Notes under the pieces: model-generated | Database searches by the model: none | What the model saw: the letters and a program-made list of their open reading frames with translations, nothing else | What the model was told of the DNA's origin: nothing | Made by a program: the position numbers and the translations under genes | In this document: positions 6,655 through 61,836 of the stretch, in pieces | Layout: every line of letters begins with the position of its first letter | Numbering within the stretch: position 1 is the stretch's first letter | Source of the DNA: a virus | Lineage: Duplodnaviria > Caudoviricetes | Reading direction: 5' to 3' (one strand) | IMG/VR virus record: IMGVR_UViG_3300020187_001966 | DNA: 64,000 nt

Positions 6655-8591
6655 AGATCGATCAAATCACAGAAAACATGAGTCATACTAGTAAACGACT
6701 ACATGACATTGAAAAGGAAAAGGGTGTAAAGCCTGGTACTCCTGAGTGGTTTAAACTGTGGTTTAGTTTACCTTACCTTAAAGAAAGCACAGTTGTAGAA
6801 GGTTACAAACTACAATTAGAACGTGATACTGATATGATGGTATTAAATATTGTTGACACTGCTACAGGCAAGCGTACAGAAGTTCGTGGCAAGGCAGGCT
6901 ATGAGACTAACGGTTATGATAAAAATGACAAACTACATCAGTTACTAGATAAAATTAGTAAAACTGCTAATATCAGTGAACTAATGAACGGTGAACCTGT
7001 TGGTATCAACCCTAAACACCCAGACGGTGCTAGTGCAAAGAAAGCAACGACTAAAGCATTCAATGAAGCAAAAGATGGTCTACCAGTTAAAACACTCAAA
7101 GGATTATACCATGTCGGCACGATGGATTCATCTGAGAAGCGTGATGGCTTCGAGGGTGCAGGATTAAGCGTAAGTACACATCCTGATGCTTGGAAGCAGA
7201 TTGCTAGAGGTCACGTAACAGGTGATACTCACAGTGCTACAAAAGAAGGCAATAAATTCTTAGATGTACATAGTCTTTCAGACGCACACAATAAACAAAT
7301 CAAACAATGGGCAATCGAAAATGGCTACTTAGAACAGCAAGAAACTGTTACAGTATGTTACTATGATGATGAAATGGAAGATGATCTTTGTTCAACTTTC
7401 GACTCAATGGCAGATGCCGAAGCAGAGTATGATGAAGAACTAAAGCATATGGATGTAACAGTAGACAAGGGCGGCATTGTTCCTACTGATAAGCTGAAAA
7501 AAGAAACAAGACAAAATCGTATAGATTCAACAGGTGTGCTAGAGTTTGTACTACCAATATTTGCAGAACAACAAGGACTCGACGGTGTTTGGTGGCAAGA
7601 TAACCTAGATGTCCAGCGATATTCGGCACCACGTGGTGTTATTGTTCCTAGCAAGATTAAGTCTTGGAAGTTCACAGTTAACGAATCAATTACAGAAGCA
7701 TTTGATAATCCTTATTCATATTATTGGGATGATACATATAACGGCGATGACTCTTTTCTAGCTAAAGCTGAAATGGATATGGGCGAACTAATGGTTATGT
7801 TTTCAGTAGGCGAGCCAGGTGAAAGTTGGACTATTGACTTTGCGGTAGACGGATCAATGGACAAAACAGGTGACGGAGATCAGTTTAGAATCTTTGCTAC
7901 AGTAGTTGCAGTTATAAAAGACTGGATGGCTAATAAGGTAGATTTATCTAAAGTAACACAAATTGATTTTAGTTCTGACAAGGACGGCGAGGCAGAAGAT
8001 AGTAGAGCTAAACTATACAAACGTTTTGGTCAACAACTAGCAAGTAAACTTGGATGGAATTTAGAAGTCACAGATAGAGGACAATTTGCTTCCTTTAAGA
8101 TTAAGAATCCAAATGCTCCTGTGAAAGAAGCAGTTAATGAAGCAATAGAAATGAAAATTAGCGACTTGACTATCAGTGATGCTGGTATGGCAATCGCACA
8201 ATCAGTAGGTGGTGGAAGTAGAACAGATGCTCCGTTGGCAGTTACAAAACTTCCATCAGGCCATGTATATCTGGTAAATGGGTATCATAGATTAGTAGAT
8301 GCTATGCAGGCTGGCAAAGATACTGTATCGGTAGAATATGTTCCATATGAAAAAGTAGAAATACTTTGGAAACAAGAACGTGAACAAGATATCAAATACG
8401 GTAAACAGTTTAACGAAAACTTCGCAGACGGTAAAGTAAAAGGCAAAAGCAGACCAGGCAGAGTAAAGAAGTCAGGTGCTAGTTGTAATGGTAGCGTAAC
8501 AGAATTACGAGCAAAAGCAAAAAAAGCCAGCGGTGAGAAAGCAAAGATGTATCACTGGTGTGCCAACATGAAAGCTGGTAAGAAGAAATGA
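6651..8591 (+). CDS. Multi-module putative internal polyprotein (ART-like, ParB/Srx-like and basic modules)
   Basis: Modules bounded by ITE/LKE/FNE/VNE/VKE; LYHVGT...GLSVS (ART-like); VYLVNGYHRL (ParB-N-like). Confidence 0.6.
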   Translation: MKIDQITENMSHTSKRLHDIEKEKGVKPGTPEWFKLWFSLPYLKESTVVEGYKLQLERDTDMMVLNIVDTATGKRTEVRGKAGYETNGYDKNDKLHQLLDKISKTANISELMNGEPVGINPKHPDGASAKKATTKAFNEAKDGLPVKTLKGLYHVGTMDSSEKRDGFEGAGLSVSTHPDAWKQIARGHVTGDTHSATKEGNKFLDVHSLSDAHNKQIKQWAIENGYLEQQETVTVCYYDDEMEDDLCSTFDSMADAEAEYDEELKHMDVTVDKGGIVPTDKLKKETRQNRIDSTGVLEFVLPIFAEQQGLDGVWWQDNLDVQRYSAPRGVIVPSKIKSWKFTVNESITEAFDNPYSYYWDDTYNGDDSFLAKAEMDMGELMVMFSVGEPGESWTIDFAVDGSMDKTGDGDQFRIFATVVAVIKDWMANKVDLSKVTQIDFSSDKDGEAEDSRAKLYKRFGQQLASKLGWNLEVTDRGQFASFKIKNPNAPVKEAVNEAIEMKISDLTISDAGMAIAQSVGGGSRTDAPLAVTKLPSGHVYLVNGYHRLVDAMQAGKDTVSVEYVPYEKVEILWKQEREQDIKYGKQFNENFADGKVKGKSRPGRVKKSGASCNGSVTELRAKAKKASGEKAKMYHWCANMKAGKKK

Positions 8592-8806
8592 AGATGTTTT
8601 TTAAAAAGTGGTGGCGCAGTATGTTTCCACAATATATACTTGAAGTAAAACATCGTGGCGTTGAGCGCCGCATACATGTAGTAAAATTTCATAAGAAGAA
8701 TATGAAACGATTGGCAGGTATAAATGTTCATGGTGAGACCTTTGAACTAATGAGTAAAGAACCAATGGATTACTATGTAGTAGAATACAGGGATGATTTA
8801 AGATGA
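8588..8806 (+). CDS. Hypothetical protein
   Basis: 72 aa, ATGA-coupled on both sides. Confidence 0.65.
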   Translation: MKMFFKKWWRSMFPQYILEVKHRGVERRIHVVKFHKKNMKRLAGINVHGETFELMSKEPMDYYVVEYRDDLR

Positions 8807-9441
8807 AATTATCAGAATTATTAAACATCAACTTCCCTCAATTGGAGGAAGTGATGAGTACAGAAGATTTAGAGGACAAAGTCCAAAAACAAAAACAAGA
8901 CGCATTCAATAAAGCTATGCTTGACGCAATGCATCGTCTTGTAATGAGTAAAGACAAAAGAAGTAGTATTGGCAGCTATGCTTTTGATATATCACGTAGT
9001 TTTGGAGGAGTAAGTCCCAAAGAAGTTGAACGTATGTACCGTGACAAATATATGACTGAGGGAGAACAACTCCCTACAATAATAACGCAAACAATGTTGG
9101 ATACACTAGAAAAACATCTAGATAAAATGTTTTCATCAGTTGGCATTGATGTAGAGTTTACACGACACTTTTTAGACCGTGTAAATGATAACAGAAATAA
9201 AACGCAAATTACTCTAAAAGAGCTTGCTATTTTGTTTAAAGACGCTTATAATAAGTATGGTAAGCAAATAGCACAAATGGGTCCAGATGCGGAAGCTGTC
9301 ATTAAAGATATGCGCAGTGATGTTAATCTACCTTTTGTACTAAATTGGGATAGTAGTAATCAAGAGCTAGACTTAGTAGCAAAAACAGTTATGCGTAAAA
9401 AAGACTTCTTTACTCCTGATACAGAGCTTCCGTTAACATAA
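8803..9441 (+). CDS. Putative internal protein; C-terminal HFLDRVND...KTVMRK domain (possible RNase fold)
   Basis: MKLSELL N-terminus; second module after MTE|G. Confidence 0.55.
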   Translation: MKLSELLNINFPQLEEVMSTEDLEDKVQKQKQDAFNKAMLDAMHRLVMSKDKRSSIGSYAFDISRSFGGVSPKEVERMYRDKYMTEGEQLPTIITQTMLDTLEKHLDKMFSSVGIDVEFTRHFLDRVNDNRNKTQITLKELAILFKDAYNKYGKQIAQMGPDAEAVIKDMRSDVNLPFVLNWDSSNQELDLVAKTVMRKKDFFTPDTELPLT

Positions 9442-9983: not shown

Positions 9984-11597
9984 ATGAAGTTTACTGATTT
10001 TACTGAAAAAGTTATTGAATCTATTGTTAACGAAGAAGCAGCTATTAAACTTGATTTTGATCAAGTGAGGATAAGAATACCTGCTAACGATAATACTAGA
10101 CCAACTACTGGAGAAGTTATTGATTTAGATTCTCGTCGAGCTGCAGCAAAAGATGCTCTTAGTAAAATGTCAGAAGCAGACAGAAAATCTGCAAACGAAT
10201 TTATTAAAAAGAACAAAACTCTACTACAAAGACTATCGTCTGTAGGAGCCAGATCAGCAGCAAGACATGGTGTAGCAACAATTTCAAGTGTAGCATCAGG
10301 CCCACTTGCGCCAGCAGTAGCAGCAGTATTAAATGTAGCAATGCTAGGTTGGGATTTAGCTGATGCCGGCGTTGAAATATGGGACTGGGCAAAATCAAAC
10401 AATGCTAAAGATATTAAACAAGGTAATGCTGGTCGAGCCTATGGCAATGATTTAGCAATGGTAGTTCCAAGATCACCTAGACAGAATTCAAGAGACGATG
10501 ATGCGTATGAAATAAAACATTTAACTCAACAATCACAATTTGGTGCTGCTGGTATGAGAGATCAAGCTGCTCGATTACTATCACAACGTCAAGCTGAATA
10601 CCGCAGAGATCAACAAGAATGGGACAAAGAGTTTGGAAAAACACACTTAGATAACGGCACAGCAAATCCAGATGCAGGTTATCAAGATAAAATAATGAGA
10701 ATTGCGCAAGCAGGTAGAGATGCTCAAAATAAAGCAAGTGATAACGAGCTTATTAAAAAAGCACAACAAAAACCTCAAGATATTCCTCCTGTTGTTAATT
10801 TTACAAATATTCCACCATTGATCACACCATCGTTTACCCCAGGCACAATTAACAACCCAACTGGAGAATTCACTCCCCCTGAATTTGACCCTAATGCTCC
10901 TGAGTTCCCTGAGTTACCTAAAAGGGGTAAACCATTTAAAGCACCAGAAACACCTATAGAGCCAGCTCCAAAAGGCCCTAAAGTTATAACTAAATCACCA
11001 ACCCAACCAAAAAGAACCGACAAGGATCTGGAAAATCCAATAGTACCTGGAGAATTCACTCCCCCTGAATTTGACCCTAATGCTCCTGAGTTCCCTGATT
11101 TACCTAAAAGGGATGATCCGTTTAAAGCACCAAAGCCACCTGTAGAGCCAACTCCAAAAGGCCCTAAAGTTGTAACTACCCCACCTAAACAACCAAAAAG
11201 AACCGACAAGGATCTGGAAAATCCAATAGTACCTGGAGAATTCACTCCCCCTGCATTTGACCCTAATGCTCCTGAGTTCCCTGAGTTACCTAAAAGGGGT
11301 AAACCATTTACAGAACCAGAGTTGCCAAAAGAATTACCAAAAGAATTACCAAAAGAATTACCAAAAAAGTACACCCCTCCTGCTATAACCCCTAATCCAC
11401 ATGCCGGGATAGTTATTGGGAAAAAAGGTAAAACTGATACTAAGACAAAAACCAAGGAAAAACCTAAAGGCAAGACGACAAGTAGACGTGTTGGTGGTGA
11501 TGCTGGCAGTGGTGATCGCATTAAGTCAACGGCTAATCAAATGAAGTTCAGCCCTATAAATATTAGAGACCCACTAAACTTAAAGAGATATGGATAA
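9984..11597 (+). CDS. Putative internal protein with Pro-rich tandem repeats
   Basis: MKFTDFTE...IVNE|E start; 62-aa repeats and (ELPK)x4. Confidence 0.7.
   Translation: MKFTDFTEKVIESIVNEEAAIKLDFDQVRIRIPANDNTRPTTGEVIDLDSRRAAAKDALSKMSEADRKSANEFIKKNKTLLQRLSSVGARSAARHGVATISSVASGPLAPAVAAVLNVAMLGWDLADAGVEIWDWAKSNNAKDIKQGNAGRAYGNDLAMVVPRSPRQNSRDDDAYEIKHLTQQSQFGAAGMRDQAARLLSQRQAEYRRDQQEWDKEFGKTHLDNGTANPDAGYQDKIMRIAQAGRDAQNKASDNELIKKAQQKPQDIPPVVNFTNIPPLITPSFTPGTINNPTGEFTPPEFDPNAPEFPELPKRGKPFKAPETPIEPAPKGPKVITKSPTQPKRTDKDLENPIVPGEFTPPEFDPNAPEFPDLPKRDDPFKAPKPPVEPTPKGPKVVTTPPKQPKRTDKDLENPIVPGEFTPPAFDPNAPEFPELPKRGKPFTEPELPKELPKELPKELPKKYTPPAITPNPHAGIVIGKKGKTDTKTKTKEKPKGKTTSRRVGGDAGSGDRIKSTANQMKFSPINIRDPLNLKRYG
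10861..11310 (+). repeat. 186-bp in-frame tandem repeat, about 2.4 copies
   Basis: CTGGAGAATTCACTCCCCCT... starts at 10861, 11047 and 11233. Confidence 0.92.
11319..11366 (+). repeat. 12-bp tandem repeat x4 encoding ELPK
   Basis: GAGTTGCCAAAA followed by GAATTACCAAAA x3. Confidence 0.92.
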
Positions 11598-11600
11598 GAA

Positions 11601-13421
11601 ATGATACACAAAATAGCAAAACAAATCATAGCAGAAGCTAGACAAAGCAGAACTAATTATGCTGTTACACAACAGCCATATGATAAAATTAAAGCAAATA
11701 TGTACACCATATTTGAATGCTATGCTCGTGGTATTATTGACTGGGACATTTCAAAAACAAAACTACAAAATGTAATTAAAGAGTATGTAAATTTATATCC
11801 ACTAGAAGAGCGTAAAGCTGAAGTTAAAATTATGCGTGAAGAATATAAACGTATCACAACAGACTATAAACTAGCACTAGACGAATATCGTGTAGTTGCT
11901 GAACAAAAAATGACAAGTAGTTTAGTAGCAAAACAAAAACTAGACGAAAGTACAGCGCAACATCACAGTAATGTATTTTACAATGGACGTAATTTAACTG
12001 AATCAGATCTTAAAGATATTGCTACACTTAAAACATGGCAACGTGTAATGGAAGCGTATCCTAACCTTACAACAAAAGAAGAAGAGCTTGTACGTACACT
12101 TGAAAACACATATGATACTAAAGACTTTGAATTTAATCCAAGAGCTGGTCATAGAGATCAAATGGCACATCCAGAAAATCAAGGATTAGGTCCATCAAAT
12201 ATGTCTAGCCCACGTCCCAAGTTACGTCCTAAAAAACTAGCTCCAATGTCAAGTCCACGTCCACAAGCCCGTCCAGCAAACTTACAAATGCGTAATGATA
12301 TTAATAAAGCAGTACAGCAGGCAGTTGGAGAAGGCGATAGCCCACACAAAAAAGGTACAGCAAAGTACAAAGCACATATGGCGGCAATGCATGCTGAAGG
12401 ATATAAAGAGTTGCCGCCAATTAACAGAGATCGTTATCAAGAACGTGACGGTCTAGAAGGACCATTCAGTACACTAAGTGGTAAGGTAGTTTATTATGAT
12501 CCAAAAGAAGGTTCGTACTACGATCCAGACACAGATATGTATATGAGTTATGGCGAATTCAAAGCACTTGACAACGACTATAGTAACATGAAAGACGAAC
12601 GTGACATCGACGTAAAAGAAGAAATGAGCAATGACGAAGTAGATGCGTTCCATCGTGCACTAGATGAACTTGTGCACAAGCACTTAGGTCACAGCTCACA
12701 TGAGAAAGAAATGGACGAAGTTGAAGAAACACTTAGCCCAGAAGAGAAAAAGCAAGTCAATCAAATGTACAACAAAGACGGTACGTTAACTGACATTGGT
12801 AAAAAAGTTATGAGCCAAGGACAAATACAAGATATCCTTAAAAAAGCAATGAAGCAACTTAAAGGTATTGATGCCCAAGCAAAGTTTACACACAGAGATT
12901 TAAATCAAGCAGTTGCTACAATTAATCAAGGTAATATTCCAGGCGCACTACAAGAATTAGTAAATGGTGTAGATGGTCCTGAGCCACAAATACAAGACAC
13001 ATTTAATGACGCACATGATGATTTACAGAGACTTATTAACCCTAAAACAGACAAAGAACTAGATGATGAGTATTGGCAAGACGTATCCGATATGAAAGCA
13101 AAAAGCAGAGCTGGCGTAGAATCAATTGTTCATGATGTATTTGATACAGCACTTGAAGAAATGACAAGCGCAGGTGCTATTGCCAGTGTAGCAACACCAA
13201 TGGGTAAAATGAAACGCCGTAAAGACAGTATTTTTGCTGACAAAGAAACTAAAGGCGATGTAATGACTGAAGCACAGTTTGACGAAGCGGCAGGCGAAAA
13301 AGATGCTTGTTATCGTAAAGTAAAATCACGTTATAAAGTATGGCCAAGTGCTTATGCTAGTGGCGCATTAACAAAATGTCGTAAAGTTGGAGCAGCCAAC
13401 TGGGGAAAAAGTAAGAAGTAA
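11601..13421 (+). CDS. Multi-module putative internal/core polyprotein
   Basis: IAE|A, LDE|S, LTE|S, VGE|G, VKE|E, LEE|M, MTE|A, FDE|A sites; basic C-terminal DACYRKVK...SAYASGALTKCRK module. Confidence 0.6.
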   Translation: MIHKIAKQIIAEARQSRTNYAVTQQPYDKIKANMYTIFECYARGIIDWDISKTKLQNVIKEYVNLYPLEERKAEVKIMREEYKRITTDYKLALDEYRVVAEQKMTSSLVAKQKLDESTAQHHSNVFYNGRNLTESDLKDIATLKTWQRVMEAYPNLTTKEEELVRTLENTYDTKDFEFNPRAGHRDQMAHPENQGLGPSNMSSPRPKLRPKKLAPMSSPRPQARPANLQMRNDINKAVQQAVGEGDSPHKKGTAKYKAHMAAMHAEGYKELPPINRDRYQERDGLEGPFSTLSGKVVYYDPKEGSYYDPDTDMYMSYGEFKALDNDYSNMKDERDIDVKEEMSNDEVDAFHRALDELVHKHLGHSSHEKEMDEVEETLSPEEKKQVNQMYNKDGTLTDIGKKVMSQGQIQDILKKAMKQLKGIDAQAKFTHRDLNQAVATINQGNIPGALQELVNGVDGPEPQIQDTFNDAHDDLQRLINPKTDKELDDEYWQDVSDMKAKSRAGVESIVHDVFDTALEEMTSAGAIASVATPMGKMKRRKDSIFADKETKGDVMTEAQFDEAAGEKDACYRKVKSRYKVWPSAYASGALTKCRKVGAANWGKSKK

Positions 13422-49486: not shown

Positions 49487-49931
49487 TGAAAATTGGGGCA
49501 TCGGTAAATCCGGTGCCCTTCCTTGGCCACACAACCCTGCTGACCTAAAATGGTTTAAAGCATCAACATTAAATCATACTATAGTAATGGGCAAGGCAAC
49601 ATGGGATAGTTTACCCGTCAAGCCGTTGTCCAATCGTGTCAATGTTGTTGTTTCTAGTTCTGATATACTTGCTAAGGTTGATGTATTATCAATCAGTGAC
49701 TTACGCCGCCGTCTATCGTCGATGGATGCTGAACAAGATGTATGGATTATTGGTGGTGCTAGATTGATTGAAGGTATGATGGACTATATTGACGAGTTCC
49801 ATTTAAGCCAAATCAAAGGCAATTACAATTGTGACACATTTTTACCAAGTACACTGATTCAAGAAAACTATAGTCTAACATCAAGTCAATTTCAAGGCGA
49901 TGTTTATGTTGATGTATGGAGTAAACGTTGA
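49458..49931 (+). CDS. folA: Dihydrofolate reductase
   Basis: GIGKSGALPW, DLKWFK, VMGKATWDSL, RVNVVVS, IIGGA, CDTF. Confidence 0.93.
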   Translation: MMIRAILACDENWGIGKSGALPWPHNPADLKWFKASTLNHTIVMGKATWDSLPVKPLSNRVNVVVSSSDILAKVDVLSISDLRRRLSSMDAEQDVWIIGGARLIEGMMDYIDEFHLSQIKGNYNCDTFLPSTLIQENYSLTSSQFQGDVYVDVWSKR

Positions 49932-50359
49932 AGATATTAATATTTGGATTGCCTGGTAGTGGCAAAAGTACACTGGCAAAACCTTTCGCAGAGCTAATTG
50001 GCGGTGTACACATAAATGCTGACGCAGTTAGAACACAATATAACGACTGGGACTTTAGTCTTGAAGGTCGAAACAGACAAGCATCAAGAATAAAATACTT
50101 GGCAGATGGTGTAGTTATGGCAGGTAAGATTGCTGTTGCTGACTTTGTTTGTCCAACACACCTTACACGTATGGAGTTTAATCCTGACTACACAGTGTGG
50201 ATGGATACTATTTCTCGAGGTAGATTTGAAGATACGAATGATATGTTTGAAACACCTGAGCTTGTAGACTACCATGTTGAGAAATGGTTTGACAACGCAC
50301 ATGAACAACTAATGCCAGTAGTACAGCGTTGGATGAGTATTAATAATAAGAAAGAATAA
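49928..50359 (+). CDS. cysC: Adenylyl-sulfate-kinase-like P-loop kinase
   Basis: GLPGSGKSTLA, NADAVR...DWDFS.EGR, DFVCP, FETP. Confidence 0.75.
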   Translation: MKILIFGLPGSGKSTLAKPFAELIGGVHINADAVRTQYNDWDFSLEGRNRQASRIKYLADGVVMAGKIAVADFVCPTHLTRMEFNPDYTVWMDTISRGRFEDTNDMFETPELVDYHVEKWFDNAHEQLMPVVQRWMSINNKKE

Positions 50360-50539: not shown

Positions 50540-51435
50540 TGTACCAATATTTAGAAGCACTACAATGTATTATGGATGACGGAGAAGATGTCAATGACCG
50601 TACTGGCGTTGGCACTCGTACTATTTTTGGATACCAGATGCGGGTTCCATTATCTTACAGTAATTTTCCAGCCGTAACAACAAAGAAACTAGCATGGAAG
50701 AGTGTAGTAGGAGAGCTGTTATGGTTCTTAGAAGGCAATACAGATGAACGTAGATTAGCAGAGATCACATTTGAGAAAGATCGAGAACAACTGTCGGATA
50801 AGAATACCATCTGGACTGCCAACGCTAACAAACAAGCAAAAGAATTAGGCTATGTAAAAGATGACGATCAAGACTATAAAGTTCTTGGTCCAGTATATGG
50901 ACATCAATGGCGTAACTTCGACGGAGAGTATTGGGTTAGTACACCACACCTTAAAGGTACAGATCAGATTAGCTGGATCATTAATGAGATTAAAACTAAT
51001 CCAGATAGTAGACGTATTATACTAAGTGCTTGGAACCCTAATCAACTTGATAAAATGACGTTGCCTCCTTGTCATACACTGGCACAGTTTAGGGTAATGA
51101 ACGGCAAACTAAGTTGTCAATTGTATCAGCGTAGTGCTGACATGTTCTTGGGAGTGCCGTTTAACATTGCTAGTTATAGTTTGCTTACTCACATGCTAGC
51201 GCAAATATGTGATTTAGAAGTAGGTACATTTATATGGACTGGCGGCGATTGCCACATATACAATAACCACATGGAGCAAGTAAAGCAACAACTAGAACGT
51301 ACACCTGCGGATGGTCCTATACTAGAGATGCCAGAGTTCAGTACACTAGAAGAATTACTAGCTACTAAACCAAGTGATTATAATCTTGTAGGATATGATC
51401 CAATGCCAACTATTAAAGCACCAATGGCGGTATAA
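50539..51435 (+). CDS. thyA: Thymidylate synthase
   Basis: DRTGVGT, ELLWFL, LGPVYGHQWR, LPPCH, YQRSADMFLGVPFN. Confidence 0.96.
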   Translation: MYQYLEALQCIMDDGEDVNDRTGVGTRTIFGYQMRVPLSYSNFPAVTTKKLAWKSVVGELLWFLEGNTDERRLAEITFEKDREQLSDKNTIWTANANKQAKELGYVKDDDQDYKVLGPVYGHQWRNFDGEYWVSTPHLKGTDQISWIINEIKTNPDSRRIILSAWNPNQLDKMTLPPCHTLAQFRVMNGKLSCQLYQRSADMFLGVPFNIASYSLLTHMLAQICDLEVGTFIWTGGDCHIYNNHMEQVKQQLERTPADGPILEMPEFSTLEELLATKPSDYNLVGYDPMPTIKAPMAV

Positions 51436-52115
51436 TGAACCATAAAATTCTTTATAAATTAGAAGAGCTAATACATACTAGTCCACAATTATTGCGACAA
51501 CGATTAACATTAAAGCAAGCCATACAAGGTACGTTTGATGTAGAAATTGACGATGTAGACTATGACACCATTGGTGAACTAGTAGACAGAATTGATGATA
51601 AGGTACTAAGTCATTACTTTTGCAATGTATGGCAAAGTGAAATGAAAAAATACAAGTACAGTGGGCTTACATTAATTGACGAAGTAAACAAATTAAAGCC
51701 TAGAGCAGTGTTAGATATTGGGTGTGGATATCACGAGTTTAAAGGCAAAATAGATAATTTAGTAGGCATTGATCCGTATAACGATAAATCAGATGTAAAA
51801 GTAAAATTACTAGATTATAGACCATCTCAAAAGTTTGATGCAACACTAGCACTGGGTAGTATTAATTTTGGTAGTACTGATAAAATATTTGCAGAACTAG
51901 AACATGCTGTTAGTTTGTGCAATCCTGGTGCTGTTATGTTTTTTAGAGTTAATCCAGGCTTACCACATGAAGCAGACGAAAGTAATTGGATTAGCTTTTA
52001 TCCATGGGATAGTAACTTTGTTGTTAACTGTGCTAGTCAGCTTAACGTTGACATATTAGATTTAAGAACAGATTCACACAAGAACAGAATGTATTTTGTG
52101 TGGCGGACTAAATAA
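51435..52115 (+). CDS. Class I SAM-dependent methyltransferase
   Basis: VLDIGCG, GIDP, FDATLALGSINF. Confidence 0.8.
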   Translation: MNHKILYKLEELIHTSPQLLRQRLTLKQAIQGTFDVEIDDVDYDTIGELVDRIDDKVLSHYFCNVWQSEMKKYKYSGLTLIDEVNKLKPRAVLDIGCGYHEFKGKIDNLVGIDPYNDKSDVKVKLLDYRPSQKFDATLALGSINFGSTDKIFAELEHAVSLCNPGAVMFFRVNPGLPHEADESNWISFYPWDSNFVVNCASQLNVDILDLRTDSHKNRMYFVWRTK

Positions 52116-52216
52116 GTATACAATATTGCTAACGCTCTGATCAAAAAGAAGTTCAGTAATATAACCCCCAATATTTTTAATTTAAGGAGCAGCTAGATTC
52201 TAGCTGTTGTATTTCT
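52108..52216 (+). promoter_or_regulatory. Putative late promoter (CTAAATA/ATAAGTA) and structured tctA leader
   Basis: CTAAATAAGTA at 52108; AAGGAG 52184-52189 followed by hairpin CAGCTAG-att-CTAGCTG. Confidence 0.45.
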
Positions 52217-53668
52217 ATGGACTATTACATTGTTGTATTATTATTAGGTGTGTTTTACGGATTTTTCGTAGGGCTCGTTCCTGTGGCTGGTGCTACAACT
52301 GGACTGATTGCAGTTTACAGTTTTGTAGGCTACTTTGAAGATCCTTACATGCTAGTTGTGTTTACTACAGCCATTGTAGTTACTAGCAGTATAGGAGATA
52401 CATTTTGCGGTGTTGTTATGAATATACCAGGAGCAGGCGGTGCCGCCGCTACTATGGTAGATGGATTTCCAATGTCAAGAAGAGGTGAAGCCGCTAGAGC
52501 ACTTAGTGCTGCAATTAGTACAAGTTGGATAAACGGATTAATATGGGGCTTGGCTGTGTTCTTGTTTCTGCCTTACTATACTAAAATTGTACTGTATTTT
52601 GGTACAGCAGAAATGTTTTCGTTCTTGATATTTGCTATGACTTGTGTTATATTTGTTAGTAGTAAGTATTGGTTCCGTGGCGCTGTAGCATTAGTTGCTG
52701 GCGTTGCTGTTGGGCATATTGGTATGGATCCAAATACTGCTAGTGTACGTTGGACTATGGATTGGGAATATCTTGGAGCAGGTGTACAAATAATACCATT
52801 AATGGCAGGAGTGTTAGCATTTCCAGAACTAGTAAGTGCATATCGTATGCGAGCAGAAAAGATAAAATTAACTAATGGTGTTATTGTTGAACAACTAATA
52901 CAAGGTGTTCGAGACACTTGGCGTTATAAGTGGGATGGATTACGTGGAGGTCTAATAGGAGGCTTTATCGGACTAGTACCAGGCATAGGCGGAGCAATTG
53001 CTGATTGGTTTGCATATAGCCAAACTGTTGCACTTGGAAAACGTGATGGAGAAAATGTTGGACAAGGTCATGTTAGAGGAGTAATAGGTTGTGAAGGTGC
53101 AAACAATGCACAAAAGGCAACCAGTTATGTTCCTACAGTGTTGTTTGGTATCCCTGGCGCACCATTTGAAGTTATAGTAATGGGACTGTTGATGTATGTT
53201 GGACTTGAGCTAGGTACACCAAGTGTACTAGAAGATCAAAGATTTTTTGATGTACTACTCAGTAGTTACTTGTGGAGTTTGTTACTCATACTGCCTATTA
53301 GTTATGGGTTTATCAAGTATGCAGTGTATATAACAAACCTTCCGTTTAAGTATTACTTCTGGCCTATACTAGCAAGTTTAGTTTGGGCTAGTACACAGTA
53401 CACAGGCATGATAGATGATTATGCTATGTTAGCTATTTGTTGTGTTGTAGGCATGGCAATGAAGTATCTGAAGTTCAGTAGAGTGAGCTTCTTGATTGGT
53501 TTTATTCTTAGTGCTAGATTAGAATCAAGTTGGGTACAGTTTGATACATTTGGTTATGGGTGGCAAGATTTGCTACTAAAACCACTACCAGCTGTATTCA
53601 TAACCCTAGCAATTGCAGCCGCAATTTGGGGAATATTTTTTAATAAAGCACGTATTGATTTTGTATAG
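52217..53668 (+). CDS. tctA: Tripartite tricarboxylate transporter, large membrane subunit
   Basis: Polytopic; IPGAGGAAATMVDGFPMSRRG, GLVPGIGG, EGANNA, LFGIPG. Confidence 0.88.
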   Translation: MDYYIVVLLLGVFYGFFVGLVPVAGATTGLIAVYSFVGYFEDPYMLVVFTTAIVVTSSIGDTFCGVVMNIPGAGGAAATMVDGFPMSRRGEAARALSAAISTSWINGLIWGLAVFLFLPYYTKIVLYFGTAEMFSFLIFAMTCVIFVSSKYWFRGAVALVAGVAVGHIGMDPNTASVRWTMDWEYLGAGVQIIPLMAGVLAFPELVSAYRMRAEKIKLTNGVIVEQLIQGVRDTWRYKWDGLRGGLIGGFIGLVPGIGGAIADWFAYSQTVALGKRDGENVGQGHVRGVIGCEGANNAQKATSYVPTVLFGIPGAPFEVIVMGLLMYVGLELGTPSVLEDQRFFDVLLSSYLWSLLLILPISYGFIKYAVYITNLPFKYYFWPILASLVWASTQYTGMIDDYAMLAICCVVGMAMKYLKFSRVSFLIGFILSARLESSWVQFDTFGYGWQDLLLKPLPAVFITLAIAAAIWGIFFNKARIDFV

Positions 53669-53677
53669 GAGATGAAA

Positions 53678-54736
53678 ATGAAAATCAGAAATTTAGTATT
53701 AGGCGCAGTTGCGTCACTGGCAATCGCTACAGTAGCATTTGCTGAAATCACAATGGTAGTACCACAGAAGCCTGGTCAAGGCACAACTGTATGGGCAGAG
53801 ATTGTAAAGAAAGAACTTGAAAAACACTTAGGTGAAAAAATTACATTACGATTAATTCCAGGTGCTCGTGACATTCCAGGATTTAATGAGTATCATAATA
53901 ATTTACGCTTTGATGAGAATACTATTATGGTATCACACGGTGGTAACGGTGTTAGTTTCTTACAAGAGGATGTAGCTTATGATTACGCAGAGTATGAATC
54001 AATTGCACTTATGAACTTAAATATTATCGCAGGTAAACGTATTGGCGATGACATGAGTAAGCCACGTTTTCCAGCAGGTTCAGGAATGGTGCCAGAAGCA
54101 TTTGCTATGACACTTATGTTATGCGGACCAGACAAGAGTGTAGACGAATATATTCAATGCTTTAAAGAAAATGTAGTATGGGTTAAAGGCATGAGTGGTA
54201 GTGAAAGACGTTTAGCATTTAAACGTGGAGATCTAAACGGTACTCGTGAGAACCCAGCAACATATCAAAAACACGTAGAGCCAGATGAAAATGCAGAGTT
54301 ATGGTTCCATCATGGTCTACTTGATCCAGCAACTGGAACACACAGTGACGATACAAACTACCCAGCAGGATATCAAGTAGAACAATTATTTGAAGCACGT
54401 TGGGGTGTAGCACCAAGTGGAGAGTTTTATGATGCGTATGTACTTGTAAAAAGTTTCCGTGACGGTTTACAAAAAGCAATTTGGATTAACAAAGGCAATC
54501 CAGAACTTCGTGATCGTTTACGTGCGGCAATGACAGCATTAGATAATGATCCTAAAAGTATGGCTGCTATTGAAGCAAAGAACGGCAATTACGAATGGTT
54601 TATTGGAGAACAAGGTGACCAAATGCGTGACACATTGATGGGCTTTATTACTGAAGATGCTCTCAAGAACTTAGTTAAGTTTAACAGTGAAGCACTAGGA
54701 CTTAAAAGTATCTATAAAGCAGATTTGGTTAAGTAA
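53678..54736 (+). CDS. tctC: Tripartite tricarboxylate transporter substrate-binding protein (TctC/Bug family)
   Basis: Signal peptide; VVPQKPG.GT..WA..., IPGA, G..Y.G..E..LAF.RG. Confidence 0.75.
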   Translation: MKIRNLVLGAVASLAIATVAFAEITMVVPQKPGQGTTVWAEIVKKELEKHLGEKITLRLIPGARDIPGFNEYHNNLRFDENTIMVSHGGNGVSFLQEDVAYDYAEYESIALMNLNIIAGKRIGDDMSKPRFPAGSGMVPEAFAMTLMLCGPDKSVDEYIQCFKENVVWVKGMSGSERRLAFKRGDLNGTRENPATYQKHVEPDENAELWFHHGLLDPATGTHSDDTNYPAGYQVEQLFEARWGVAPSGEFYDAYVLVKSFRDGLQKAIWINKGNPELRDRLRAAMTALDNDPKSMAAIEAKNGNYEWFIGEQGDQMRDTLMGFITEDALKNLVKFNSEALGLKSIYKADLVK

Positions 54737-55398
54737 TGAACAGCAATTGGGACAAATTGAAGCCTCGTACAAGCTATCATTATGACTCATTTAAAATGGA
54801 CCCGGCATACGATTCAATGCGCTATGCCGGGCGTTTTATTGGACAATGGCAAAAAGAACTAGAAACTGTTGTAAAAAGTAGTACAGCTATTACATGGCGT
54901 AACCGTAATCCAATAGATGGCACAAGTCCAGACATTGAGTCAGAAGAGTATGATCTAATGCGAGCAGGTGCAGATCCTAGACTTAGTTTAACTAATTTAG
55001 AATACCAATTGCATCCTGTATTTCAACATATGACAGATGCATTAGGACTAGTAGAAGGTGAGAAGCCGATACAAAGTCGTGTACACATACAACATCCTGG
55101 TCAAGTTTGGAACTTACACATTGATAAATTAGAAAAATGGAACAAAGCAGATCCGCACAGTGTTTATAGATTTATGGTAATGCTAAACGATTGGGAGCCA
55201 GGTCACTTTATACAGTACGGAAACTTTGTTCACACTGGTTATCGGGCTGGAGAAATATACAGTTTTGATTGGTATAATGTACCACATTGTACAGCAAACG
55301 CTGGAAATGGTCCAAGATGTACACTGTTAGTTACAGGTGTTGCTACTGAACATACTCGTAACTTATTCAGCACATATAATAATCAAATACCTGTATAA
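54736..55398 (+). CDS. Fe(II)/2-oxoglutarate oxygenase (Asp/Asn beta-hydroxylase-like cupin)
   Basis: PGQVWNLHID...RFMVML...PHCTANAG...R. Confidence 0.75.
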   Translation: MNSNWDKLKPRTSYHYDSFKMDPAYDSMRYAGRFIGQWQKELETVVKSSTAITWRNRNPIDGTSPDIESEEYDLMRAGADPRLSLTNLEYQLHPVFQHMTDALGLVEGEKPIQSRVHIQHPGQVWNLHIDKLEKWNKADPHSVYRFMVMLNDWEPGHFIQYGNFVHTGYRAGEIYSFDWYNVPHCTANAGNGPRCTLLVTGVATEHTRNLFSTYNNQIPV

Positions 55399-55401
55399 AT
55401 A
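55394..55401 (+). promoter_or_regulatory. T4-type late promoter
   Basis: Perfect TATAAATA; SD AGGAGA; ATG 55424. Confidence 0.75.
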
Positions 55402-55423
55402 AATGTACTAACAGGAGAATAAC

Positions 55424-55684
55424 ATGGCTTATACACATGTAAGTAGACTTACAACTACATCAAGTGATACATTTGACACGGTGGAGGCTTGGTTAACTGC
55501 ACACGGAAGTTGTGGTCAAAATAGCGAAGGTCATACTAGTTGGAATGCTGTACTAGACGAAGGCGGCGCATCAATTACACGGACTGTAGTTTGGCCAATG
55601 AAAGCAGTAAGAGAATTTGAACGTAGCGAACGTCCAGATAATCCTACATTTGATGGTGTAGTAATTAGTGAATCTGAAGACTAA
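55424..55684 (+). CDS. Small Ser/Thr/acidic late protein, possible substrate or structural protein
   Basis: Own late promoter and strong SD; 86 aa. Confidence 0.7.
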   Translation: MAYTHVSRLTTTSSDTFDTVEAWLTAHGSCGQNSEGHTSWNAVLDEGGASITRTVVWPMKAVREFERSERPDNPTFDGVVISESED

Positions 55685-56364
55685 AGAACACCAGTATAAA
55701 TTCGTTGAACAGTGTCGTTTAGAACTCGATCAATAGATTTATTTTTTGCAAGATCTTGGAACTTTGTATCTCGTTTACAAAGTTCTTTTTCTTTGTGTAA
55801 TTGATTATCTAGTCCTAGTTTATGTAATAGTTCTACTAGACTATTTTGTTGTAAATCAAAATGTTGTTGAATAAATTTATTCTCTATAGCAATTTTTTCT
55901 CTCATACGCTTGTCATTCTCATACCAAGTATAGTGAGGATAAGTTATATTCCAACCTCCTACTTGATGCCACCAATCAAAACAAAAGTCATCTGGCATCC
56001 AAAATGCCAAGAACTTTGCTTCAGGAAACCATTCACGTAGTTGAGGTATATGATAACTAAACCAATGACTTTTAACGATCTTAATACCAGTATCCCAATC
56101 ATCGAAAGGTTCCTGAAATTGTGCTATTACATCGTCACGATTTAATTGATCCAGACGATCAAACTCTAAACCATAATCGTGTCCTGGTCCCCAATATGCA
56201 CCTCTGTGCCAACCTTTAGCGCCGTTAGTATAACTATCAGTGTTTACTTCATCTGACGTATTGATGTCTACTTGACTTTGTATACATCGAATTGCTCCGC
56301 TCCAACGACTGCCTGGTGTACCAGTTGCTATGATTAAATCTTTACCTTTATACATAATTGCCAC
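55681..56364 (-). CDS. Sulfotransferase-like P-loop-fold protein
   Basis: IIATGTPGSRWS; GAYWGPG; IVKSHWF; paralogue of 58091-58798. Confidence 0.55.
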   Translation of the reverse strand: MAIMYKGKDLIIATGTPGSRWSGAIRCIQSQVDINTSDEVNTDSYTNGAKGWHRGAYWGPGHDYGLEFDRLDQLNRDDVIAQFQEPFDDWDTGIKIVKSHWFSYHIPQLREWFPEAKFLAFWMPDDFCFDWWHQVGGWNITYPHYTWYENDKRMREKIAIENKFIQQHFDLQQNSLVELLHKLGLDNQLHKEKELCKRDTKFQDLAKNKSIDRVLNDTVQRIYTGVL

Positions 56365-58090: not shown

Positions 58091-58798
58091 TTAGATCATC
58101 TCAAAATTATAGTAACTCATTTGTACATCATATCTCAATCGTTCAGTTGGATTATCATTTTTATGATGATATCCTATGAGACTATGACTGTACCGACGAT
58201 TTTCATCAGTATCATCTAACTTCCAAACGTCACGCCAGTGTCTAGGTGTACTAGTGTGTACTGCTAAATCACGTTCATAAATCCATTTACGTGCTAACAT
58301 ACACTCGTGGTTAATTAACTCTTTTGCCTGTTCAGTTGTTTTGTAAAACGTAGTATAATCAGGATATGGAATTTTAATACCACCTACTCCATGCCAACCA
58401 TCCCAACATGCTTCTGGATGTCGCATAACAATCATAATTTTACTTTCAGGAAACGTTTCAGCAATCCAATCTAAACTGTAAACAAACTGATGACACTTTA
58501 CTATAATATATCCGTCATGATTTGTATAAGCTAATTCTATTTCAGCAATCACTTGTTCACGTGTATATTTTCCAGTGTGTAGTTCATGAAACCATTCACC
58601 AAACTCAAATCCTGGACCAAAATATGCGCCCAAGTGTTTAACGCCATTAAACTCTGGACCATGATCATACCCACGCTCTGGTGATCGGTCACTGATGTTT
58701 ATATCAATTACTGGAGTATTAGCTAGTAATACACTAGTGGCACTCCATTTACTTCCTGGTGCTCCAGTAAAGAATATTATTTTATTTGTATCTATCAT
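58091..58798 (-). CDS. Sulfotransferase-like P-loop-fold protein
   Basis: IFFTGAPGSKWS; GAYFGPG; IVKCHQF; IVMRHPE. Confidence 0.55.
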   Translation of the reverse strand: MIDTNKIIFFTGAPGSKWSATSVLLANTPVIDINISDRSPERGYDHGPEFNGVKHLGAYFGPGFEFGEWFHELHTGKYTREQVIAEIELAYTNHDGYIIVKCHQFVYSLDWIAETFPESKIMIVMRHPEACWDGWHGVGGIKIPYPDYTTFYKTTEQAKELINHECMLARKWIYERDLAVHTSTPRHWRDVWKLDDTDENRRYSHSLIGYHHKNDNPTERLRYDVQMSYYNFEMI

Positions 58799-59211
58799 GC
58801 TATTGTAATCGCAAAGCGCCTTTCTTCTATGTTCATAACTGTGTGATATGAATCAACTTCTAATATGTGCCACTGATGTTTATCTAGTACAACATCACAT
58901 GTGGGGGTTACCTGATCTTCATCATACCAAATAGTGTGTACATTAGCGCCGCCTGGGTCAATAATATAGTTTAACGCTGTCGTTCGTCCTCTGTCTTTGT
59001 GTACAGGTACACCATGTACTAGTGTTTGATAACGAAACTTTGTATATTCAGGAAACTGTTCTTGAAGATAGTCCGCCAATTCCGCTTGACATTCGTGTAT
59101 AGTGTAATTAGGGCTACGTCCGCCAAATATATTTTCAAGTTCTAATACTTGTTCAACTGGTAATATTAAATGCTCTGGCACAGCAGGCAAGTCTAAAAAT
59201 TTATATTTCAT
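58795..59211 (-). CDS. Fe(II)/2OG oxygenase-like cupin
   Basis: VPVHKD...ALNYII...W.ILEVDSYHTV...R. Confidence 0.7.
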   Translation of the reverse strand: MKYKFLDLPAVPEHLILPVEQVLELENIFGGRSPNYTIHECQAELADYLQEQFPEYTKFRYQTLVHGVPVHKDRGRTTALNYIIDPGGANVHTIWYDEDQVTPTCDVVLDKHQWHILEVDSYHTVMNIEERRFAITIA

Positions 59212-59945
59212 ACGATAAACTCTTTCATCTTTCGGTATTCTCTATAGCTAACATTAAGTACACGGCTGTTATTAGTCTGATTCCTCAATGCCATATTATT
59301 TTTTATTTGTGTTTCTATATGTTGATAAAAACTTCCACTGTTTAAATGCTCCCAAACATCTTGTACTGTAAAAAACAATCCCCAACGTTTACTTAATTGA
59401 TATAGCATTTTTCCATATTTAGTTTTGCTACCATTCATCCACTCAAGTTTAAGATAGGCAGGAAAATGCGCCGTTGTGTGCATATATCTATTTACTATAT
59501 CATCAGCATCTGCTACAATATTAATTACACGACTGTTGGGAAACTGTGTTAGTATTTCTTCTGGTAAACTATGCGTACAGTATAATAACCGATGTGTGTT
59601 TAGATATTGTTGACCTTGGGCTTTTTCAAACTGTGCTGGAAATAAGTCACGATAATATGTATCACAATCAACAAAATCTTTTACATAATCCCAGACTGGA
59701 GGCAATACTTCTCCGTTGGGCATAGTCCTATCAAAATGTTTGGGGGCTACTCGACGTTGAATTATCCAATCACACTTGTGCGATATGTTCCAAGGATTAA
59801 TACCGTTGTCTGAATTACTATACCAATACACTTCTGGTAAACTGCACAAGACACGCCCGATAGTGTGTCCTCTACTACCAGGTTCAAAACTTACAAAAAC
59901 AAAGTTTGGATTATTGTATACGTCCGAGATAATAGTAAACTCCAT
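59208..59945 (-). CDS. Sulfotransferase-like protein (divergent)
   Basis: VFVSFEPGSRGHTIGR; LYCTH. Confidence 0.45.
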   Translation of the reverse strand: MEFTIISDVYNNPNFVFVSFEPGSRGHTIGRVLCSLPEVYWYSNSDNGINPWNISHKCDWIIQRRVAPKHFDRTMPNGEVLPPVWDYVKDFVDCDTYYRDLFPAQFEKAQGQQYLNTHRLLYCTHSLPEEILTQFPNSRVINIVADADDIVNRYMHTTAHFPAYLKLEWMNGSKTKYGKMLYQLSKRWGLFFTVQDVWEHLNSGSFYQHIETQIKNNMALRNQTNNSRVLNVSYREYRKMKEFIV

Positions 59946-60784: not shown

Positions 60785-61262
60785 TATTTAATTTCCATAT
60801 ATTTTGTTGTGTATAAAATACTTCATCAGCTCTTACAAAATCTACAATACCATATTTGGCTAAATGATAAAATGTTCGATTAACACTTCCCATTTTACCG
60901 CTGGCATCGTTGTCTATATTTGTAGTGATGTACACAGGCTTATCTTGAGCGTATTCTAATTGTAATGGCAACTGTGTACTAAAACAGTAACTTTGCATGT
61001 GGTATCTGTTTAGTCCAACGTTACGTGAACGTAATTGTGCACCACGAAATAAAGCTCTATATCCATCTTCAAAAGGGTGTATACCACTTAAACTTATAAT
61101 TTCGTCATCAATGTATGTGGCAAACCAAGCACCAGATTCCAAACACCAATCCCATTTCATATTTTGTAGACTGGAGTTATTGTTGTATCCAAGTTTTTCA
61201 CATTGGCGTACAAACTCGCCTACTTGTACAATATGTTGATTGTCAATACGTTTAGACAGCAT
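60756..61262 (-). CDS. GNAT-like protein
   Basis: IISLSGIH...YRALFRGAQL; VYITTN. Confidence 0.5.
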   Translation of the reverse strand: MLSKRIDNQHIVQVGEFVRQCEKLGYNNNSSLQNMKWDWCLESGAWFATYIDDEIISLSGIHPFEDGYRALFRGAQLRSRNVGLNRYHMQSYCFSTQLPLQLEYAQDKPVYITTNIDNDASGKMGSVNRTFYHLAKYGIVDFVRADEVFYTQQNIWKLNNEKYKNIRL

Positions 61263-61836
61263 TTCTAACCACCGCCACTAAGTGAATTCTATTGTCTGTA
61301 CTAGCATTAAATGCTGTGTGTTTATGATGCTCAGTTTGTGTTAACCACCAAGTATTTTCTGGCATGTGCAAAACTTCATCTTCAATTACCATTTGACATC
61401 CTGGATCAGTAACTAGTGGGTAGTGTATTCTATTAGTACTATCTTGATGCCAAGTTAAACATGTTTTAGGAAGACTAGTCATTAATCTAACTCTACCAAG
61501 TGTATACTGACTGCTTAACTGTTGGTATACTTTAGCAAATATAGTATTTTCAAATACCGTACATAACTGAGTAAAGTGCTTTTCTCTTAAATGTTTATCT
61601 CGCAATGGTACAGTAAAGTGTGTTATATTACCGTCTTTATCTGCTTTATCAATTGTATTATTCCAATCATATTTTAAACTAGCATCTCCATGATGATAGT
61701 TGTCGGGCTGATCAGGTGTAGTATTAATACAAATTTGTCTGTGTGTACCCCAGTCAATTTTTTCTTGTTGTAATAACTCGTTCATACAACTGAGTAAATC
61801 ATATTGCGGTAAATCTAGTGGTGTGAAATATTTCAT
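61252..61836 (-). CDS. Asp/Asn beta-hydroxylase-like Fe(II)/2OG oxygenase
   Basis: GRVRLM...CLTWHQD...RIHYPL...HTAFNAS...RIHLV. Confidence 0.8.
   Translation of the reverse strand: MKYFTPLDLPQYDLLSCMNELLQQEKIDWGTHRQICINTTPDQPDNYHHGDASLKYDWNNTIDKADKDGNITHFTVPLRDKHLREKHFTQLCTVFENTIFAKVYQQLSSQYTLGRVRLMTSLPKTCLTWHQDSTNRIHYPLVTDPGCQMVIEDEVLHMPENTWWLTQTEHHKHTAFNASTDNRIHLVAVVRNAV

Follow-up and report, generated by a model that had tools for sequence, protein, structure and literature searches.

The question raised by this locus is why a virus should carry the permease and the binding protein of one and the same uptake system, with no gene for the remaining subunit, TctB, and with an oxygenase gene coupled to their end. 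The locus occupies positions 52217 to 55398 of a 64-kb (64,000-nucleotide) stretch of DNA, referred to here as the window, from a member of the Caudoviricetes (IMG/VR record IMGVR_UViG_3300020187_001966); the gp43-type DNA polymerase (phrog_262, 2e-196) and the tail proteins encoded in the window identify its source as a large marine phage, uncultured and related to T4. The jumbo phages Sinorhizobium Phosso and Agrobacterium Atu_ph07 have the nearest polymerases, at 47% identity, and these make an alphaproteobacterial host a lead, and only a lead. On balance, the three genes are best read as a phage-lineage version of the tripartite tricarboxylate transporter (TTT) that has been cut to two parts and that, in this lineage, precedes a hydroxylase acting on small molecules or peptides. 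They are arranged as follows:

52217-53668, plus strand: tctA, permease of the 12-transmembrane (TM) type of the TTT family (TC 2.A.80), 483 amino acids (aa), PF01970
53672-54736, plus strand: diverged tctC/Bug-type periplasmic solute-binding protein, 354 aa, assigned by profile and fold
53672-53743, plus strand: signal peptide of the TctC-like protein, approximately residues 1-24
54736-55398, plus strand: Fe(II)/2-oxoglutarate (2OG) oxygenase-fold protein, 220 aa, with invariant HxD...H...R and a modelled fold

The permease gene is full length: PF01970 matches it at E 2.1e-83 over profile positions 1-422 of 423, and a simple hydropathy scan finds nine strongly hydrophobic segments in its product. 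The hallmark of the family is a duplicated G-Hy3-G-Hy3-G-Hy2-P-G-Hy-G motif in TM1 and TM7 (PMC5812351). In the phage protein the TM7 copy is exact (G244-x3-G248-x3-G252-LV-P255-G256-I-G258) and the TM1 copy is a variant with P-x-A-G (G11-x3-G15-x3-G19-LV-P22-V-A-G25), the Gly and Pro columns being invariant across phage and cellular sequences. A tblastn search of 50,697 deposited phage genomes with TctA returned only distant, mostly unannotated records, and some of the phage-collection records that match at 25-30% are bacterial or fragmentary.

The binding protein is the reason why standard annotation misses this cassette, since it has no Pfam match; its identity goes beyond routine annotation and was resolved by a family profile and by fold. 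As a single sequence it gave zero matches in Pfam, NCBIfam, PHROG and the PDB, and tblastn found nothing in the same phage genomes. It has 1440 homologues among protein clusters, and none of the 120 listed carries a precomputed Pfam domain. We therefore relied on an alignment of 49 full-length relatives (20-59% identity) drawn from 1.84 billion cluster representatives, nine distant members of which match PF03401 TctC. Searched against the PDB, the 49-member profile matched BugE (3.7e-22), BugD (1.9e-20) and others, including MatC, terephthalate-binding proteins (TBP), Bug27, TphC and AdpC; beyond BugE there were ten further TctC/Bug entries, and the TctC/Bug matches ranged from 4e-22 to 8e-12. 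An AlphaFold2 model built with the family alignment as input reached a confidence (pLDDT) of 94.2 and a pTM of 0.90, and the top 14 Foldseek matches of this model in the PDB were all TctC/Bug proteins, with a probability of 1.00. By profile and predicted fold, the product of 53672-54736 is a diverged TctC/Bug binding protein. Its N terminus, read by eye, is a Sec signal peptide that ends in AFA followed by E.

No TctB gene accompanies this pair. In a hydropathy scan of all open reading frames (ORFs) of the window, no ORF with at least three TM segments was found except tctA and one shadow ORF, and the same scan of 95 fetched loci gave no consistent TctB candidate adjoining a phage tctA; as positive controls, it recovered two genuine TctBs (in L093 and in L094/L095). 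The TctB profile PF07331 had no match in G003, a complete relative of 328 kb with terminal repeats. A gene for TctB is thus lacking from the window, from about 70 related phage loci and from G003. The spacing of tctA and tctC is -7 to approximately 100 nt in most loci, and since mostly 0-100 nt lie between the two genes there is no room for tctB; in the window the gap is 3 nt, with AGGAG preceding tctC. A fused TctAB was rejected because TctA, at 483 aa, is not above the usual length. TctB itself is poorly conserved, has no known function and is absent from TctA-bearing archaea (PMC5812351).

The pair is conserved as a unit. A scan of IMG/VR found the TctC-like protein encoded on 339 viral contigs, and gene neighborhoods were examined by tblastn in the best 80 loci. 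In all 70 of the viral loci with at least 1.6 kb of upstream sequence, tctA lies directly 5' of tctC. Thirty-eight loci were well flanked, with at least 4 kb upstream and at least 3 kb downstream of the cassette, and in these the companions were as follows:

Methyltransferase-like gene (homologue of 51435-52115) in the flanks: 37 of 38 loci
P-loop "TGTPGSRWS" protein (homologue of 55681-56364) in the flanks: 22 of 38 loci
Oxygenase in the flanks, within approximately 6 kb: 19 of 38 loci

The relatives of the binding protein come from TARA Oceans and Joint Genome Institute (JGI) marine samples. An identical TctC-like protein is encoded on 22 metagenomic contigs from independent samples, 14 of which are 50-200 kb long, and the GC content of the locus (about 0.36-0.40) is even and the same as in the rest of the window. 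Other arrangements also lack tctB: a phage-like contig carries two tandem tctA-tctC pairs (L089:3532-8672), and in a SU10-like podophage (L091:3880-7589) tctC-tctA stand right after the capsid, adaptor and large structural genes. Among relatives that are clearly cellular, the nearest found was L093 (28% identity), with the order tctC, a 41-aa ORF, tctA, tctB.

The TctAs of the cassette stand apart from the cellular TctAs sampled. Representative genomes of 185,579 species were scanned with the phage TctA alignment, and a TctA more than 36% identical was present in six metagenome-assembled genome (MAG) contigs only (45-48%; L096-L101, from GTDB). All six bear the phage-type tctA-tctC pair and three also have the methyltransferase-like gene; they were assigned to Legionellales, Polynucleobacter, Omnitrophota, Weeksellaceae and Ignavibacteriaceae, with one unclassified. 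Given the phage type of the pair and the taxonomically unrelated bins, we take them as probable phage contigs that were binned with bacterial genomes. The next cellular matches, at 36% identity or less, were in Binatia, Thermodesulfobacteriota and Dehalococcoidia. In a quick maximum-likelihood tree with cellular TctAs sampled from genomes sharing two short TctA motifs, a single branch (SH-aLRT 97) set all 23 phage-cassette TctAs apart; they form two subclades, the smaller of which includes the TctA of the window. Across loci L009-L088, identity to the window is bimodal for TctA (77-89% or 44-50%) and smooth for the TctC-like protein (62-87%). The two TctA subclades pair with closely related binding proteins, which suggests that tctA types have been exchanged between phages by recombination. 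Comparison with three relatives gave ratios of nonsynonymous to synonymous change (dN/dS) of approximately 0.06-0.12 over the methyltransferase-like gene (0.06-0.07), tctA (0.06-0.09), tctC and the oxygenase gene; the ratios are rough, because synonymous sites are near saturation. Both tctA and tctC appear from these values to be under strong purifying selection.

The ligand pocket appears to differ from that of characterized binding proteins. In TctC structures the loop P-F-x-A-G-G-x-x-D binds two waters that hold the proximal carboxylate of the ligand (PMC5812351). The phage protein has PQKPGQGTT in its place: it retains the Pro and the first Gly and lacks the second Gly and the Asp, and the canonical domain-1 signature is absent. 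In loop 2, GARD replaces GAGG, and the first helix has a Trp; this Trp and the Asp of GARD are invariant in 11 close relatives. Near phage relatives share the signature change and distant, cellular-type members retain P-x-x-P/A-G-G-G-T/S-D, a distribution that points to a pocket rebuilt within the phage clade. The known ligands of TTT systems are mostly di- and tricarboxylates, the range including citrate, Asp, Glu, adipate, terephthalate, nicotinate and sulfolactate (PMC5812351).

The third gene is coupled to the pair through TAATG: the tctC stop codon TAA (54734-54736) shares its last base with the ATG at 54736. Searched as a single sequence, its product had no match in Pfam, NCBIfam or the PDB, and its family profile gave a nonsignificant PDB match (E 0.41) to the distal-His/Arg region of AtsK. 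The family comprises 885 homologues in virus-only clusters, with no Pfam annotation among the matches listed; PF05118 is found on 11% of one neighboring Atlas cluster. In 24 family members, down to 31% identity, H128-I-D130, H184 and R194 are invariant. In the model (pLDDT 93.5) the HxD motif ends strand 124-128, H184 opens strand 184-188 and R194 lies 10 residues farther on, at the start of strand 194-202, a position that would suit the basic residue that binds the C5 carboxylate of 2OG in prolyl-hydroxylase-type enzymes. All 50 VIA-align matches listed for this model were Fe(II)/2OG oxygenases (Z 8.2-11.8, 129-168 aligned residues), the best being proline 3-hydroxylase (Z 11.8), followed by prolyl hydroxylases, PiuC, L-proline cis-4-hydroxylase, AlkB homologues and AspH; Foldseek agreed more weakly. 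On the strength of the model, the product has the double-stranded beta-helix fold of Fe(II)/2OG oxygenases. Like the small hydroxylases of this class (proline 3-hydroxylase, 1E5R; L-proline cis-4-hydroxylase, 4P7X; bacterial and viral prolyl 4-hydroxylases; PHDs; PiuC; Z 10-11.8), it combines the double-stranded beta-helix with an HxD...H triad and an Arg 10 residues past the distal His on the next strand; unlike them, it has no significant Pfam or PDB sequence match and belongs to a virus-only family. No detectable sequence paralogy was found with the AspH-like genes at 61252-61836 and 58795-59211. The initial annotation of this locus, which had described a full-length tctA, a tctC with a signal peptide, the lack of tctB and a TAATG-coupled HxD...H oxygenase, is borne out on all of these points.

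The oxygenase is a partner in some lineages only. It adjoins the cassette in all 13 well-flanked loci in which TctC shares at least 70% identity with that of the window and in 1 of 17 at 60-66%. Of five large contigs (80-146 kb) without it beside the cassette, four had no family member anywhere. Elsewhere its place varies or is taken by other enzymes. A 240-kb TARA scaffold (L005) has an oxygenase homologue (30% identity, 3e-28) between tctA and tctC. In L048, of the oxygenase-less clade, the cassette is overlap coupled to an unknown 234-aa gene, which is followed by an AMP-binding ligase and a radical-S-adenosylmethionine (SAM) gene, and on the 5' side are a tryptophan-halogenase-like flavoenzyme and a second AMP-binding (acyl-adenylate) gene. 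The complete relative G003 has the same block of methyltransferase-like gene, tctA, tctC and oxygenase, which stands apart from homologues of the window's downstream island. G003 also encodes a second, very different TctA (489 aa, Pfam 2.5e-61; L179:13092-18686, minus strand). Beside it are three paralogues of the oxygenase family in tandem (hhalign 96%, E 2.5e-9) and a protein of 320 aa with a signal peptide, so that the adjacency of transporter and oxygenase has arisen at least twice. Comparison of the 320-aa protein with TctC gave no assignment (hhalign probability 3%), and it had no Pfam or PDB match. This second locus also holds a 447-aa unknown protein.

Taken from its architecture, its motif conservation, the universal pairing of tctA with tctC and the signs of purifying selection, the cassette is likely to be a functional, phage-specific, binding-protein-dependent importer that works without a TctB of its own. 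It is quite possible that the compound brought in supplies tailoring enzymes of the phage itself; the recurrent tight linkage to varied small-molecule enzymes and the near-universal methyltransferase-like partner speak for it. We lean toward the two together, that is, a bipartite phage TTT importer serving an import-and-tailor module. In such a scheme, phage TctA made after infection would be inserted into the inner membrane of the host, and the TctC-like protein would be exported by Sec to the periplasm of a Gram-negative (perhaps alphaproteobacterial) cell, where it would capture a small organic anion and pass it to TctA, which would move it inward by ion-coupled symport. No phage TctB would take part: TctA may be self-sufficient, as proposed for archaeal TctA, or may borrow a host TctB. 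The imported compound would most likely be a substrate for the phage enzymes that travel with the cassette, nearly always a putative SAM-methyltransferase, with the Fe/2OG oxygenase in the lineage of the window and acyl-adenylate ligases, radical-SAM enzymes and P-loop proteins in others. Supply of general carbon or of a cofactor fits this pattern less well. We infer the direction of transport, its energy coupling, the timing of expression, the class of ligand and the link between compound and enzymes. The initial reading as a minimal two-component importer is thus supported, a TctA, a TctC-like protein and no TctB being conserved across the phage family. A further extension, in which an ancient phage lineage of bipartite TTT systems imports an unconventional ligand that phage enzymes build into a phage-specific product, is offered tentatively and is less probable.

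Several points weigh against this import-and-tailor proposal. TctB being poorly conserved, a highly divergent or very small substitute may exist: one clade has a 46-aa, two-helix ORF 3' of tctA (L069, 5616-5756), and G003 has ORFs with three or four TM segments and no assignment elsewhere in its genome. In TRAP transporters, an analogous family, the small subunit is indispensable (PMC5812351), and for this reason a system without TctB may rely on its host. The loss of the second Gly and the Asp from the TctC signature makes even "carboxylate" an uncertain class for the ligand. The oxygenase may act on a protein and not on the imported compound, since the nearest folds of its model include hydroxylases of prolyl residues in proteins next to those of free proline. 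Finally, gene neighborhood in phages is a weak guide to pathway membership.

Two observations touch on TctB. The cellular relative L093 has its 41-aa ORF between tctC and tctA, and this ORF and the 46-aa ORF of L069 may encode small accessory peptides of the membrane or may have arisen by chance. In addition, a related 182-kb viral contig, G004, has a canonical TctB-TctA pair 45 kb from its cassette, on the segment L095 (G004:C1:110000-124000):

6986-7432: TctB (PF07331, 1.3e-17)
7408-8919: TctA (498 bits)
11251-12861: TonB-dependent-receptor plug-domain gene

This pair is a system separate from the phage cassette, and the stretch may be a second, host-like TTT in the phage or may be chimeric or cellular.

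Among other explanations, the one that survives best, although we regard it as unlikely, is that the two genes are a stand-alone pair of auxiliary metabolic genes (AMGs) that scavenges a common carbon, nitrogen or sulfur source, such as an amino acid, a dicarboxylate or an organosulfonate, for replication, in the manner of cyanophage pstS. It would fit with tctAC as the sole invariant unit among variable neighbors, and with the prereplicative company of the cassette, which comes after gp44/gp62/regA in L064 and after dihydrofolate reductase (DHFR) and thymidylate synthase genes in the window, where no TATAAATA late promoter is present between 43103 and 55394. From this company and the lack of a late promoter upstream, we infer, and only infer, when the cassette would be expressed. 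Scavenging would also be in keeping with the ligands of BugD and BugE (Asp and Glu) and of SlcH (sulfolactate) (PMC5812351), and with the earlier listing of tctA as a putative AMG on SUP05 viral contigs (PMC4164917). However, it leaves unexplained why the methyltransferase-like gene accompanies nearly every well-flanked cassette and why overlap coupling to enzymes recurs; TTT-rich hosts would profit little from another ordinary importer, and a binding site so strongly remodelled relative to cellular TctCs suggests an unusual ligand.

Less probable still is that the transporter supplies a co-substrate or cofactor (2OG, citrate or Fe-citrate) to the many Fe/2OG enzymes of the phage during infection. 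The initial annotation had favored such a feed to the adjacent enzymes, or else import of the pathway substrate, and had proposed co-occurrence with the oxygenase as a check. The TAATG coupling, the constant presence of the oxygenase among near relatives and the three paralogues beside the second TctA of G003 are all in its favor, as are the several further AspH-like and radical-SAM iron enzymes encoded in the window; citrate is carried by canonical TTT systems, and a 2026 preprint reports citrate-metal binding by BctC. Co-occurrence nevertheless breaks down with distance. Half of the well-flanked loci have no oxygenase, the near-universal partner is a methyltransferase-like gene, and in G003 the cassette is independent of the island. 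Occurrence of tctAC apart from the island, which the initial annotation had named as evidence against its reading, is thus seen in full for the island and by half for the oxygenase. Moreover, the cytoplasm is already rich in 2OG, Fe-citrate would also need an outer-membrane receptor, and the pincer motif is altered relative to citrate- and dicarboxylate-binding TctCs at the site of the proximal carboxylate. As a general explanation, feeding 2OG, citrate or Fe-citrate to the oxygenase is not supported, being weakened by the oxygenase-free cassettes, the independence from the island and the altered pincer, and no result of the analysis singles out any of these compounds as the ligand; the import of a pathway substrate, for example, a carboxylate for phage tailoring enzymes, is the better reading.

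It is also conceivable, though very improbable, that the pair is not an importer and instead exports a phage product, blocks superinfection, perturbs the membrane potential or serves as a periplasmic sensor or decoy. The missing TctB and the diverged TctC motif could be taken in this sense, as could the position of the pair among structural genes in the SU10-like podophage. Against this, both proteins retain the full architecture and the conserved motifs of a binding-protein-dependent secondary transporter, and both genes show strong purifying selection; to our knowledge, binding-protein-dependent systems act solely as importers.

That the pair is a host-derived passenger or an assembly contaminant, a piece of bacterial tctCA captured recently and without function in the phage, is already refuted for practical purposes: the bacterial or fragmentary records among the weaker TctA matches and the possibly cellular TonB-plug gene next to the canonical pair of G004 are outweighed by an identical locus on 22 contigs from independent samples, a family spread over hundreds of viral contigs, the lack of a close copy in any cellular genome among the species' representatives, a GC content that matches the window and a dN/dS of approximately 0.06-0.1 at near-saturated dS.

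Set beside known systems, the cassette shares with canonical TTT a full-length PF01970 TctA that keeps the Gly and Pro motifs, a type II binding protein that is secreted and has the TctC/Bug fold, and tight gene linkage. It differs in gene order, which is tctC-tctB-tctA in the canonical systems and tctA followed by tctC, with no TctB, in the phage cassette. The binding protein is approximately 50 residues longer than canonical TctC, falls outside PF03401 and is remodelled at PQKPGQGTT and the GARD loop. The TctA lineage is found in phages only, the cellular TctAs of the sampled genomes being at most about 36% identical. Archaeal and other stand-alone TctAs likewise do without TctB, and they gave rise to the idea that transport is carried out by TctA at its core, with TctB in an accessory part (Winnen et al. 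2003, cited through PMC5812351); those systems also have no TctC, whereas the phage cassette always has a binding protein. As with other transport AMGs of phages (cyanophage PstS; SUP05 tctA), the virus bears part of a host-type uptake system, but phages with PstS supply the binding protein alone and use the host permease, whereas here permease and binding protein come together. The presence of tctA on marine viral contigs was known before: on SUP05 viral contigs it was reported as a putative AMG, a "domain hit only" of unknown role (Roux et al. 2014, PMC4164917), a listing repeated in a review (PMC6359870). Full-text searches of one literature library gave no account of the TctC-like partner, the missing TctB or the conserved cassette.

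The virus thus carries the permease and the binding protein of one uptake system, a pair found widely across ocean metagenomes. TTT transporters are poorly understood, with no known structure of either TctA or TctB and no known role for TctB. A large natural family without TctB, under strong selection, is a ready-made test of the need for this subunit. If the extended reading, an ancient bipartite lineage with an unconventional ligand, is correct, TctB would be dispensable, the TTT family would gain a new class of ligand and phages would import external building blocks for tailoring pathways. The identity of the ligand would reveal an external compound that abundant marine phages need during infection and might also explain the tailoring enzymes that travel with the cassette.

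The genes and elements around the cassette in the window are as follows:

49928-50359, plus strand: APS-kinase-like P-loop kinase, 143 aa, PF01583 at 7e-7, partial
51435-52115, plus strand: SAM-dependent methyltransferase-like gene, 226 aa, weak Methyltransf_23 match
52188-52208, plus strand: 9-bp stem-loop between AAGGAG (52184-52189) and the tctA start, folding at -12 kcal/mol
55681-56364, minus strand: P-loop "TGTPGSRWS" protein ("ST227" family), 227 aa, sulfotransferase-like at best

The methyltransferase-like family has an invariant D-x-G-C-G motif in its alignment, its profile matches class I methyltransferases weakly, and its Atlas clusters are virus-only and labelled methyltransferase type 11. 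For the "ST227" family, the profile had no match in the PDB, and "sulfotransferase" is a weak Pfam lead, the paralogues at 58091-58798 and 59208-59945 giving weak Sulfotransfer_3 matches. Homologues of the APS-kinase-like gene adjoin tctAC in L005, L036, L041-L044 and L089, but by tblastn they lie in the flanks of only 3 of the 38 well-flanked loci. A sulfonate, sulfate or 3'-phosphoadenosine-5'-phosphosulfate (PAPS) pathway, by analogy with SlcHFG, was dropped, given the partial kinase match, the rarity of the kinase among these loci and the fact that no ATP sulfurylase was seen.

The stem-loop before tctA has counterparts in relatives, where GC-rich hairpins of differing sequence occupy the same site past an invariant AAGG and are followed by a short T-rich stretch; the stems are CAGCTAG/CTAGCTG in the window and CAGCCAG/CTGGCTG in L016. 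The sites are as follows:

Window: 52184-52219
L009: 4495-4542
L011: 4485-4532
L016: 4399-4446
L018: 4426-4473
L036: 4456-4503
L075: 4530-4577
L079: 1460-1507

RNAalifold found no consensus structure for these hairpins, because they differ in sequence and loop length, and each folds individually. They could be a terminator of the methyltransferase-like gene or a device that draws a distant Shine-Dalgarno sequence near the ATG, in the style of T4 genes 38 and 25.

Three further observations were made in passing. The L048 locus (L048:1135-9820) adjoins an Mtd-like tropism-determinant gene, and G003 encodes a 155-aa Na+/Pi-cotransporter-like fragment (L183:488-955, minus strand). In the window, at 55394-55684, the stop codon of the oxygenase gene is overlapped by TATAAATA, a T4 late-promoter box without mismatch. 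After this box comes an ORF for 86 aa, acidic and rich in Ser/Thr, that matches no family and whose end coincides with the end of the opposing operon.

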